Positions 22,522 to 42,935 of a DNA stretch of 64,000 bases are shown one piece after another. The stretch lies in IMG/VR virus record IMGVR_UViG_3300028030_000008, positions 21,700 through 85,699 of that record. One strand, written 5' to 3'. Origin of the DNA: a virus. The position numbers and the translations under genes are program-made. Below the pieces are notes generated by a model. That model made no database searches, was not told where the DNA came from, and saw only the letters and a program-made list of their open reading frames with translations. Each line of letters opens with the position of its first letter. Position 1 is the stretch's first letter.

Positions 22522-22625
22522 GTAACATAAAACACCGCTAGTTTGCCCTCAAAACAACACATTAGCCCGCTGCACTGTATGCAGTAGAATTTGTGCGTAA
22601 TAGTCCATCATGGTATACTTAGCAC

Positions 22626-23171
22626 ATGAATACAGTGATTGGAAAGTGTAAAGAGTGCTTCAAAAACACAGCGCTGAACCAAGATGGACTTTGCAAAAAA
22701 TGCCAACTCGAAACGGTAGACTCTTTCGAGATGGCAGAAATAAGAGCGAAACTTCTGCGCTTCTATTACAGCGAGTTTGGCGCAAAAAGCGTTATTGCTA
22801 ATTGGCAAAAACTCGCCGACAATCTCTCCCGTTTAGTAAAGAGAGATAAAGCATGGACAGCGAGGTACATTAGGAGTATAGCAAACGGGGACAAAGGCTT
22901 TCGTCGTATTCCAGCGCAATTAAAACAAGCGATAGAAGGCTACTCTCCAAAGATTGTATTCACCGATGGGTTTGCTGTTGAAAATACGGTAAGTAAATAC
23001 CAACTTCCGGTTGGCTCAATCATCCTCGGTAAACCACGCAAGTGTAAATGGAGAGACTGCAACGTATGGTTCGTCCCGAAGTGGGACAGTCAGCTATACC
23101 ACACAAAAAAATGCAAAAAGCTCGCTCGAAACGAGCGCAGAAAAAAGCAAAGAGTACAAAAGAGATTCTAA
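22626..23171 (+). CDS. HTH/zinc-finger protein (leaderless)
   Basis: TG-TATACT 6 nt before ATG; N-terminal CxxC pairs, C-terminal CKWRDC..YHTKKC. Confidence 0.6.
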   Translation: MNTVIGKCKECFKNTALNQDGLCKKCQLETVDSFEMAEIRAKLLRFYYSEFGAKSVIANWQKLADNLSRLVKRDKAWTARYIRSIANGDKGFRRIPAQLKQAIEGYSPKIVFTDGFAVENTVSKYQLPVGSIILGKPRKCKWRDCNVWFVPKWDSQLYHTKKCKKLARNERRKKQRVQKRF

Positions 23172-23227
23172 CTTTTGTGCTTCATAATTTGTTATGAGGT
23201 ATATTTACGGTCAATGAATTGTTAGCT
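23166..23227 (+). mobile_element. Degenerate attC-like site
   Basis: TTCTAAC at stop codon ... CGGTCAA-TGAATT-GTTAGCT; left L box not recognisable. Confidence 0.45.
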
Positions 23228-23254
23228 GGCTACGCGCTAGAGAGGAGTGGAATA

Positions 23255-23470
23255 ATGAGCGTTACAATTTTGGAAGTTTTACAAAATGCAGACCATAACA
23301 TCAACGCTACGCATCCTGTACAAATTGAAATGGGAAAAGAGCAACTAAAAAATGCTATTGTCCTGCTGGAAAAAGGATATGATATTGATGCGATTTTTGA
23401 TTACATTGTAGAATCATACGGTAGTGTTGAAGATGCACCAGAAGCAGTAGTCACAGAACGCGCCAGCTAA
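23255..23470 (+). CDS. Gene cassette 1 ORF, hypothetical
   Basis: Bounded by GTTAGCTGGC (23221) and its reverse complement GCCAGCTAAC (23462-23471). Confidence 0.7.
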   Translation: MSVTILEVLQNADHNINATHPVQIEMGKEQLKNAIVLLEKGYDIDAIFDYIVESYGSVEDAPEAVVTERAS

Positions 23471-23589
23471 CAACCCGTTGTACGCGAAAAGCTATCAAGC
23501 CATACCTCATAGCTAATTCGCCTACAACCCAACTGCGATAGCGGCGCAATACGGCCAACCCGCGATCGCGTAAACTCTGGCCGTTATAT
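23465..23589 (+). mobile_element. attC recombination site
   Basis: AGCTAAC ... TT(G)TACGCGA / TCGCGTAAA ... GTTATAT; single extra base in left L box. Confidence 0.8.
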
Positions 23590-23620
23590 TACTCAACTAA
23601 TAAGCAAAAGGAGATTAAAA

Positions 23621-23881
23621 ATGTCAGTAGCAAGCGATTTAATTGAACGAATGGAAGCAGAAACAGGTCAGCGTATTGATGCCAATGATGGTAATAATTT
23701 GGCTATGGCTGGCCTGCTCGGAGCAATGTCTCGGCTAATGGGGAAGTCGCCGTCAAGTTACACTGAACGTGATGATGTTGCAGTCGGAGTGCTTATCAGG
23801 CATCAAATGTCCCCGGAATGGCAGCGAGAGAAAAAAGGTAAACAAATGTTGGCGTCTTTGGGCAAGTGGAATGTCGCCTGA
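23621..23881 (+). CDS. Gene cassette 2 ORF, hypothetical
   Basis: Bounded by GTTATATTAC (23583) and GTAATATAAC (23909-23918). Confidence 0.7.
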   Translation: MSVASDLIERMEAETGQRIDANDGNNLAMAGLLGAMSRLMGKSPSSYTERDDVAVGVLIRHQMSPEWQREKKGKQMLASLGKWNVA

Positions 23882-23911
23882 CGTTTTGAAAGCTATTGCC
23901 GGATAGTCGTA

Positions 23912-24037
23912 ATATAACCAGGGTATGCAGGCGAATTGCTAGACCTGCTGCCCTCGAAGCAAGTGCGTTTTACAAACTTATCAAACAAGAGGCATCAGAC
24001 GATTTACCCGCAATCGCCTGATCACCCTCTGTTATAC
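23912..24037 (+). mobile_element. attC recombination site
   Basis: ATATAAC-CAGGGT-AT(G)CAGGCGA ... TCGCCTGAT-CACCCT-CT-GTTATAC. Confidence 0.8.
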
Positions 24038-24064
24038 CGCTACGGCGGGAAAGGAAATGAAGCA

Positions 24065-24472
24065 ATGTCAGCAGGTATGAATATTGGCGATAGAGAAGAT
24101 TATTGGCAATCTTATCGCTTCCCTACTACCCTTGATAAAGATGCCCCGCTGCATACATCTCCGCATTACACCGACAAACGTTTCAATAAAGAACAAGCAG
24201 TTTTTGGGAAACATCCAAAATCGCGGTATGGACACGACAATCTGAAATATGATTATTCTGATCGTCTTTGGCAATGGGATTATGACAAAGCTGAAAAATC
24301 CGTTGAAGTTGCAAACGCCAGCGGCGCGACATTAAGAAGTTGCAAACGGTACGAGGCCTATCTGTCTGCATACTTTAATAAGCCAATCGAGATTAAACAC
24401 ATTATTGCAGGTGTCAATCGTGGTAATGGTTATCCGTATTGTGTATTTGGCTACAAAAGCGCAGACAGTTAA
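24065..24472 (+). CDS. Gene cassette 3 ORF (own attC missing)
   Basis: Starts after GTTATAC core; no matching inverse core downstream. Confidence 0.6.
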   Translation: MSAGMNIGDREDYWQSYRFPTTLDKDAPLHTSPHYTDKRFNKEQAVFGKHPKSRYGHDNLKYDYSDRLWQWDYDKAEKSVEVANASGATLRSCKRYEAYLSAYFNKPIEIKHIIAGVNRGNGYPYCVFGYKSADS

Positions 24473-24495
24473 TAGCTTCAACCTTAAAATTTCAG

Positions 24496-24536
24496 CTATC
24501 CACAGGTTATCCACAGAAAGAGGTGAGTTATCCACA
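24496..24536 (+). promoter_or_regulatory. Three DnaA boxes
   Basis: CTATCCACA 24496, TTATCCACA 24507 and 24528. Confidence 0.7.
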
Positions 24537-24544
24537 GGCAAAAG

Positions 24545-24572
24545 TTGCAAAATAGCACACAATTCCTATAAT
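24545..24572 (+). promoter_or_regulatory. Promoter of tRNA cluster
   Basis: TTGCAA-16bp-TATAAT. Confidence 0.65.
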
Positions 24573-24585
24573 ATCAAGTAATCAT

Positions 24586-24657
24586 TGCGGAATAGCTTAA
24601 CGGTAGAGCGCCAGAATCATAATCTGGATGTTGCAGGTTCAAATCCCGCTTCCGCAA
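24586..24657 (+). tRNA. tRNA with CAT anticodon (Met or Ile2)
   Basis: Cloverleaf: TGCGGAA/TTCCGCA, CCAGA-atCATaa-TCTGG, GCAGG-TTCAAAT-CCCGC. Confidence 0.9.
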
Positions 24658-24737
24658 CATGACCTTAGAGATAACCGAGTTCAATAAGGTCATTCTAATC
24701 TAAGTTGAACGGACGGTGACAGCCGGAGAGACGACGT

Positions 24738-41575: not shown

Positions 41576-42935
41576 GTCAACTACATATCGACTAAAAGTC
41601 GGTAACTTGCCCGTCCGGTTGAAAACCGGCTAAAGAATTAGCCGAACCAGCGTGCTTAAGGGGCGGTTGACACGCCCCATCACCGACCAGGTCTTGCCTG
41701 GCGATGATACCGCGCAATCTAATGTTGCGGGCGGCATTTAGGTCAGAATTAGCAGAGTAACCGCAAGCTCCACACTTAAAATTATGACGCTTACGATTAG
41801 ACTTGGCAACAAAACCGCATACAGAACAACCCTGAGACGTGTGCTTTGGATCAATCTTGATGACCTCAAAGCCTTCGCTTCTGGCTTTGTAGCTAATAAA
41901 TTCATCAAGTTGATAGAAAGCCCATTGATTAAGGTCAGTACGGAACGCCTTACGCAGTTTGCGTCCCTTCCTGATACCCTTCAAATCTTCAAGGGCAATC
42001 ATTGGGTCGCCAGTCTCTTTAGCAAACTCAATAATGCGCTTACTGATAACGTGATTTGTATTCTTGGTAAAACGCGCTTGCTTTCCGCTTTGCCGTTTCA
42101 GAACGCGCCTGATGGAGCGCGTGTTCTTCTGTGCCTTCTTCCTTTGGAGGCTAGAGCGCGTTTTTTGATAGCGACCTCTAACGTGTTTCGTTTGACCGCC
42201 GCCAAAAAACAAACTACGTTTACCATCGGTCACAACAGCAAGATTGTTAATCCCCCTGTCAATACCGATAACCGCATCATTTGGCTTGCTAATTTCCGCT
42301 ACTTCCTTTTTGAACGTTACGGAAAGAAATACGCCGCGCCTGGAAACGTGAAGCCTTGCATCTCCAAGCTGCCAATCAGCAAGATATTCTTGCAACTTGG
42401 GTTCACCCTGAAATGTGACCCCTTTAATTCTGCCTGCGGTAGTCCAGATACTAAGGCCGGTTTTCTTGAAACCGAAGTCCCGTTCACGCGCCCCGCCTTG
42501 AAGCACAACCGCCGCATTTTTGAAATGTATTGGCTTCTTTGGCATCTTTTTGGCGGTACGCATTGCCTTGTACTTGGATGTAACGAACCTGAACAGGCTG
42601 CCAGTTACTTGCGCGGACAATCCGTAATCGGCCTTAACCTGATGGTAAATCAGCTTATGCAGCTTTACAGGATTAAGGATATTACCATTATCAAAAGCTA
42701 CCTTACTGGCAAAGTTACAAGCATCATTCCATGCCCTGATAGTGTCAATGGCGGTTTGCCTGTCAAGATTTATTTTAATCTTTGTAGCGCGTATAATATC
42801 CATATAGTAATTATAGCACAAGCTATAGGGATATGCAAATATATTATTGCGAGGCTGGGAAGTTACCCAAACTACGGGCGACCCGCTATCCCCCGTATCG
42901 CTTAAAGGCGGTAGTTCCTCGCGGGGGGAAAGACT
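41576..42935 (-). mobile_element. Non-autonomous IS200/IS605-family (tnpB-only) element
   Basis: Right end hairpin CGACT-ttt-AGTCG then GTAGTTGAC; left-end-like hairpin about 42885-42930; no tnpA; left boundary approximate. Confidence 0.75.
41592..42803 (-). CDS. tnpB: TnpB RNA-guided nuclease
   Basis: IGIDRG, IALEDL, TSQGCSVCG..CGACG, NSDLNAARNI; RuvC D-E-D intact. Confidence 0.95.
   Translation of the reverse strand: MDIIRATKIKINLDRQTAIDTIRAWNDACNFASKVAFDNGNILNPVKLHKLIYHQVKADYGLSAQVTGSLFRFVTSKYKAMRTAKKMPKKPIHFKNAAVVLQGGARERDFGFKKTGLSIWTTAGRIKGVTFQGEPKLQEYLADWQLGDARLHVSRRGVFLSVTFKKEVAEISKPNDAVIGIDRGINNLAVVTDGKRSLFFGGGQTKHVRGRYQKTRSSLQRKKAQKNTRSIRRVLKRQSGKQARFTKNTNHVISKRIIEFAKETGDPMIALEDLKGIRKGRKLRKAFRTDLNQWAFYQLDEFISYKARSEGFEVIKIDPKHTSQGCSVCGFVAKSNRKRHNFKCGACGYSANSDLNAARNIRLRGIIARQDLVGDGACQPPLKHAGSANSLAGFQPDGQVTDF

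Follow-up and report, generated by a model that had tools for sequence, protein, structure and literature searches.

The 64,000-nucleotide window analysed here (positions 21700-85699 of the 85.7-kb IMG/VR virus record G000) quite probably contains at 23166-24477 an integrase-less integron-type array of gene cassettes, whose content would be exchanged by an integron integrase (IntI) of the host. Integron cassettes are a main bacterial route for trading accessory genes, anti-phage defences included, and an attC cluster without an integrase is called a CALIN. The array is labelled a CALIN and not an integron because no tyrosine recombinase is found on the record: the integron-integrase model TIGR02249 and the tyrosine-recombinase model PF00589 gave no match anywhere in the 85.7 kb, so that the absence of IntI first noted for the window extends to the whole record, and a complete integron, with intI, an adjacent attI and a Pc promoter, was not found in it. 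The integron-type reading proposed in the initial annotation has held up, since the architecture, the orientation and the boundary rule fit it and the site attC1 is recognised by a covariance model trained on bacterial sites.

Organization of the cassette array

As shown in Table 1, the array comprises two cassettes with full attC-like sites, a degenerate site before them and a third unit behind them, and it is set in a run of small + strand ORFs in an early or accessory region of the phage. The order is that of bacterial integrons, in which the gene comes first and is followed by R''-L''...L'-R', and the top strands of the sites are co-oriented with the genes. Each of the two cassettes holds a single ORF, as had been described, and the lack of an evident promoter is likewise borne out, the promoter scan giving only 9-of-12 matches in and around ORF1-3 and none inside attC1; terminator-like sites were not found on the + strand.

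Table 1. Positions of the array components and of the preceding gene in the window.
Feature	Position	Strand	Remarks
Backbone ORF	22626-23171	+	181 aa; upstream of the array; stop codon within the TTCTAAC box of the degenerate site
attC0	23166-23230		Degenerate attC-like site; core GTTAGCT 23221-23227 is the putative array entry point
Cassette 1	23222-23583	+	Bounded by TT of the preceding core and G of its own R'; ORF1 and attC1
ORF1	23255-23470	+	71 aa
attC1	23465-23589	+	Full-length covariance-model match
Cassette 2	23584-24031	+	ORF2 and attC2
ORF2	23621-23881	+	86 aa as it stands
attC2	23912-24037	+	Weak by score
Third unit	24032-24477	+	ORF3; no attC and no matching R''
ORF3	24065-24472	+	135 aa

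In integrons, a cassette opens with the TTRRRY by which its own attC is completed, which makes its start complementary to its own R'', and this rule is followed by cassettes 1 and 2. The start of cassette 1, GTTAGCTGGC (23221-23230), is exactly complementary over 10 of 10 bases to GCCAGCTAAC (23462-23471), and the start of cassette 2, GTTATATTAC (23583-23592), is complementary to the same extent to GTAATATAAC (23909-23918), so that both of the 10-mer pairs reported earlier were recovered. Since the site ends fix the positions and GTTA/TAAC is consensus, only six further bases enter into the calculation, and their matching by chance has a probability of about 2e-4 per cassette. The ORF3 unit does not follow the rule, the complement of its start GGTATAAC being absent downstream on the + strand.

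The cargo ORFs received no functional lead from Pfam, PHROG or the Atlas. ORF1 has seven homologs at 52-64% identity, all unnamed, and none of the three resources gave a lead for it; the Atlas search returned nothing usable for ORF3, whose homologs sit in other, high-GC viral contigs, where no cassette context was seen. For ORF2, a confident all-helical structure was predicted (pLDDT 88), and this model had no match among PDB or viral structures.

Several minor features surround ORF1. Part of the interior of attC1 (23502-23518) has an 88% complementary counterpart of 17 nt upstream of ORF1, at 23186-23202 (AATTTGTTATGAGGTAT); together with a 19-nt pair at the cores, this places an extended, interrupted inverted repeat around ORF1. 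Read from the - strand, the flank to the left of ORF1 resembles the left half of an attC site (GCTAAC AATTC ATTGACC).

Anatomy and folding of the attC sites

An attC site is characterised by R'' RYYYAAC and R' GTTRRRY, with unpaired spacers of about 5 and 5-6 nt. attC1 consists of R'' AGCTAAC, spacer AACCC, L'' GTT(G)TACGCG, L' CGCGTAAAC, spacer TCTGGCC and R' GTTATAT, with a branched variable part of 79 nt between the L boxes; attC2 consists of R'' ATATAAC, spacer CAGGG, L'' TAT(G)CAGGCG, L' CGCCTGAT(c)A, spacer CCCTCT and R' GTTATAC. Both have the geometry 7-5-L''...L'-6/7-7, with spacers of 5 and 7 nt in attC1 and of 5 and 6 nt in attC2; both keep AAC/GTT and TAAC/GTTA in the R boxes, and the RRR positions deviate (ATA). 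Paired L boxes with spacers are present in attC1 and in attC2, but the attC2 spacers can largely pair with each other (AGGG/CCCT), and an unpaired central spacer is doubtful in this site. In both sites, the top strand has one extrahelical G at L'' position 4; in attC sites, such a base distinguishes the recombinogenic strand. Class 1 attC sites have a C at this position (G on the bottom strand), while Chloroflexi-type sites have the G on the top strand, and attC2 shares with the latter the core TGCAGGCGA ... TCGCCT.

The structure of attC1 is strong (z -3.9 and -5.7). In the context of the array, its minimum-energy fold consists of two separate domains without an end-to-end hairpin, whereas attC1 rejoined to the start of its own cassette, as it would be in an excised circle, folds end to end. 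attC2 folds end to end on both strands; in attC1 and attC2, each rejoined to its own cassette start, an R stem of at least 10 bp closes around the branched variable part. attC0 (23166-23227) has only R-box-like ends, in agreement with the degenerate third site of the initial annotation, and the covariance models give it 7.2-10.5 bits, on the - strand.

Covariance-model searches

The covariance models used here were built by ourselves from genuine sites and are not those of IntegronFinder; Rfam contains no attC family. R1 was made from six class 1 attC sites of a P1 phage-plasmid and a Salmonella island; R2 from Vibrio, Shewanella, estX and dfrA12 sites; and R3 from a structural alignment of R1 matches in bacterial loci only (class 1 and Chloroflexi MAG arrays), no phage-borne candidate being taken into its training. 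With R3, attC1 scored 21.1 bits (E 0.01 over 184 kb) and attC2 10.3 bits (E 4.9 over 184 kb, and 0.079 within a 1.5-kb region), these E-values being rough, as the calibration was shortened. Within 23100-24600, attC1 and attC2 are the two best R3 matches, full-length and with exactly the predicted ends, and the covariance alignments thus return the coordinates at which two sites with R boxes, paired L boxes and an extra G had been described. With R1 and the filters off, attC1 scored 13.4 bits (roughly calibrated E 0.28) and is the best match in all 64 kb.

Vibrio attC sites unseen by R3 score 10.5-21.3 bits and serve as a yardstick, and background matches with R3 reach 10-13 bits; by this comparison attC1 is supported, and attC2 is not significant by score alone. 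attC2 had no match with R1 or R2, and attC1 reached only 5.2 bits with R2, with which held-out class 1 sites score 14-34 bits. R2, whose scores are weak, comes from a MAFFT alignment of attC sites of very unequal lengths in which Vibrio-length columns dominate. The covariance-model check suggested at the outset had a mixed outcome, positive for attC1 with R3, weak for attC2 with its 10.3 bits and poor for attC1 with R2. A simple scan for R and L boxes (7 of 8 pairs) gave 27 matches in the window and is therefore non-discriminating.

The ORF2 family and other arrays

ORF2 belongs to a family of 146 homologs of about 95 aa. It is frameshifted: the family C-terminus (GMSPDVLKAIAG) is read in the +1 frame and stops at a TAG (23904-23906) that is separated by two bases from the 10-mer containing R''. 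The cause, in 23840-23906, is either a genuine truncation or a misassembly of the G run in TTGGGC. No homolog of the family was found when 185,579 bacterial and archaeal species were searched with one genome per species, and the family appears from this to be phage-only.

Fifty loci of the family, viral and metagenomic, were examined, and their neighbouring genes are unrelated to those of the window. In 8 of 39 non-identical loci, the flank upstream of the gene and the region of its stop codon share a GTT-led complementarity of 8 nt or more, compared with 0.8% of mismatched pairs; the upstream member lies 31-55 nt before the ATG, or 105 nt in one doubtful locus (L031), and one of the eight complements (GTTTTTGG) may be due to chance. 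The end sequences occur in five different, still complementary versions: GTTATATTAC, GTTATATTGC, GTTAGACCCC, GTTAGGCGGC and GTTAGCCCG. The elements downstream of the ORF2-family genes in these loci score 19.8-34.9 bits with R3, and several of these cassettes use the attC type that adjoins integron integrase genes in Chloroflexi genomes.

One locus of the family (L018) belongs to G001, a complete IMG/VR virus record of 80,305 bases, in which 11 attC sites, all co-oriented and homogeneous in type, extend over about 4 kb (L018 4397-8451) and in which no tyrosine recombinase was found; this would be a phage CALIN much larger than the array of the window. Its attC type, AAC-N4-CGTGCAG ... CTAACG-CAARCC-GTT, is also present in 23 bacterial MAG contigs, mostly Chloroflexi/Anaerolineae, on which R1 finds class-1-like attC sites at 22-51 bits. 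An IntI above the TIGR02249 cut-off is encoded in four of five such genomes tested and in none of 14 control genomes, and in one case the distance between a bacterial site of this type and intI, which is on the other strand, is about 1 kb. The shared attC type suggests that the host of G001 is a member of the Chloroflexi.

Content differences between relatives

Relatives of the window phage were represented in two other studies (runs X2 and X3, the latter also vent-derived) by contigs that match the backbone at 93-99% identity and the region 22600-23162 at about 93%. Each run has a contig whose homology to the window reaches 23224, where the A of GTTA stands in the entry core, and which carries unlike sequence from there on (TATGCTTTACC...). 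One relative has a copy of attC1 that is about 89% identical, with homology from CTAAC at 23467 to GTTAT at 23587; in the other run, the homology of attC1 stops at GTTATAT, 23589. Past the relatives' attC1 copy there is other DNA with a ribosome-binding site and an ATG of its own, and the homology resumes at 24478, six bases past the stop codon of ORF3, where no clear core is seen. Counting was limited to contigs that continue into unlike sequence, and three of the four breakpoints lie in cores that had been predicted in advance.

Differences in content between the relatives and the window accordingly begin at 23224, 23587 and 23589, and these positions agree with the gain, loss or reordering of cassettes at G/TT for which a comparison of relatives had been suggested. 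The unlike parts are visible as 30-nt ends only, short of whole alternative cassettes, and the X2 and X3 contigs do not cover ORF1, ORF2, attC2 and ORF3. Upstream of the relative's attC1 copy, whose homology begins exactly at CTAAC, lies a sequence unlike ORF1, which may represent either a different cassette with a related attC or an exchange of the gene body alone.

Proposed mechanism and alternative explanations

In the proposed mechanism, the bottom strands of the attC sites would fold during infection, and the integrase would be supplied by the host's own integron. IntI would cut the R' cores at G|TT and would excise, insert or exchange cassettes, with attC0 providing the entry core GTTAGCT; related phages would consequently hold different accessory genes at one fixed place, and the cassette genes would be transcribed by read-through from upstream phage promoters. 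A host IntI is the likely enzyme, and exchange may still occur. If it does, host integrases would shape the plasticity of phage genomes, and phages would move cassettes between bacterial lineages. A broader proposal, which we put forward tentatively as possible, is that lytic phages keep an attC-borne pool of phage genes of their own, shuffled by host IntI and possibly serving anti-defence, the arrays being active and not fossils. If this were true, the attC sites of the pool would be of several bacterial lineage types, and the integron machinery would be an exchange engine for phage genes too.

It could also be supposed that the attC sites are genuine but inert, a piece of an integron having been captured once or the cassettes having landed once in a secondary site, and that the differences between relatives result from ordinary homologous or illegitimate phage recombination aided by the repeated attC sequences. 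In favour of such a capture, the record has no integrase, and the locus looks decayed in the ORF2 frameshift, the degenerate attC0 and the third cassette without a site; illegitimate recombination is also raised as a route of entry in the part of Qi et al. (PMC9892861) drawn on here. But the cargo is of phage type, with an ORF2 family not found in the genomes searched, one for each of 185,579 bacterial and archaeal species, and with viral homologs of ORF3; the three breakpoints lie within cores of 4-7 nt instead of being spread over the 125-nt sites; and a single gene family is associated with five different self-complementary end pairs. A fossil capture is for these reasons considered unlikely.

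The sites might also be used by a recombinase other than IntI, namely host XerC/XerD or a Xer-like enzyme since lost from the phage lineage, and this would be compatible with the poor R2 score of attC1 and with the fact that no IntI is tied to the window phage. R3, which contains IntI-associated bacterial sites only, nevertheless finds attC1 and all of the ORF2-linked sites; the geometry, the extra base and the GTT core fit attC and not dif-type sites; a sister attC type adjoins intI in bacterial genomes; and neither G000 nor the complete G001 has a tyrosine recombinase gene, so that the use of a Xer-type enzyme is very unlikely. Alternatively, the hairpins may act in RNA, as terminators, processing sites or mRNA stabilisers, with the complementarity of the cassette ends being coincidental. 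Such a role would suit intergenic elements between co-oriented small genes and the strong structure of attC1 (z-scores given above), and attC sites are thought to be weak terminators according to the part of PMC9892861 drawn on here. It is opposed by the lack of a terminator-like site on the + strand and of an Rfam match, by a pairing between gene start and gene end over 240-330 nt that is kept through different sequences in homologous loci, and by breakpoints at GTT cores, which are not expected for RNA elements; an RNA-level explanation appears extremely improbable. Exchange of cassettes by a host IntI is accordingly kept as the preferred reading in what follows.

Comparison with known systems

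The window array resembles sedentary chromosomal arrays, such as those of Vibrio (VCR) and of Chloroflexi/Anaerolineae, in the gene-then-attC order, the G|TT cores, promoterless, mostly single small ORFs, long attC sites (90-130 nt) and a start complementary to its own R''. It differs from them in lacking intI, attI and Pc, in having two or three cassettes and in its location on a viral genome; in addition, the attC sites of sedentary arrays are homogeneous, whereas the two of the window are unlike.

Promoter-stem-loop elements (PeSLs), mobile regulatory cassettes of T4-type phages reportedly described by Arbiol, Comeau and Krisch in 2010, have an early promoter and are recombined through homology. 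Small early phage genes bounded by repeated stem-loops that mediate modular shuffling are common to PeSLs and the window array, but the sites of the window are promoterless, match attC models and break at GTT cores.

Phage CALINs have already been published (2023), and the window locus is a further case; a literature search found no paper on phage CALINs later than Qi et al. 2023. In the part of that paper (PMC9892861) drawn on here, 17 CALINs are reported from 10,705 phage genomes, three of the 17 being located in isolated, characterised virulent phages, and IntI1 recombined five of six phage attC sites tested; the experimentally active TJE1 and PH101 sites have R boxes of the ATATAAC/GTTATAY kind, with deviating RRR. 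As far as that part goes, the window phage is like these phages in being lytic-type and without an integrase and in having 2-4 co-oriented small cassettes with unknown or accessory cargo, and its sites share the ATATAAC/GTTATAY-kind R boxes of TJE1 and PH101. The sites of the window are 125-126 nt long with a branched variable part, and those described in the same part are about 50-65 nt; one site of the window is weak by model score. Compared with what that part of PMC9892861 covers, the window adds core-joined content differences between relatives and a phage-specific cargo family. Overall, the locus contributes the breakpoints at cores between natural relatives, the widespread, apparently phage-only cargo family behind several attC types, and the link of one phage attC type to integron-bearing Chloroflexi, which would provide a handle on host assignment.

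The phage and the surroundings of the array

The record is about 90% complete (CheckV), and the phage is siphovirus-type, encoding an SbcC-like ATPase and a tape-measure protein that exceeds 2000 aa. The probable source of this uncultured phage is a metagenome run from a hydrothermal vent, which contains its DNA in full. GenBank phages included neither a close nor a distant relative, and a search of IMG/VR with the flanking proteins gave the same result. The R3 scan of the first 21.7 kb of the record found no further attC sites, and the backbone ORF that precedes the array matched no family. A 409-aa ORF at 41592-42821 on the - strand, in the replication/recombination region, is a candidate TnpB, and tnpA is absent from the record.

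The array is directly followed at 24495-24537 by three direct repeats G(C/T)TATCCACAG, each with a perfect DnaA-box consensus TTATCCACA, which precede a promoter-like site (TTGCAA-16-TATAAT, 24545-24572). An attI-like role of the three GTTATCCACAG repeats was considered and rejected, since the repeats are on the wrong side of the array for it and fit the consensus of the DnaA box; they may serve to titrate DnaA or in regulation, or may belong to an origin. Downstream of the repeats lies a tRNA-Met gene (24586-24658), a tRNA being the sole match of the Rfam scan. In the contig of a relative from run X2, about 20 extra bases are scattered in the tRNA-Met region at 24611-24631, and the tRNA-Met of this relative differs or holds an insert.
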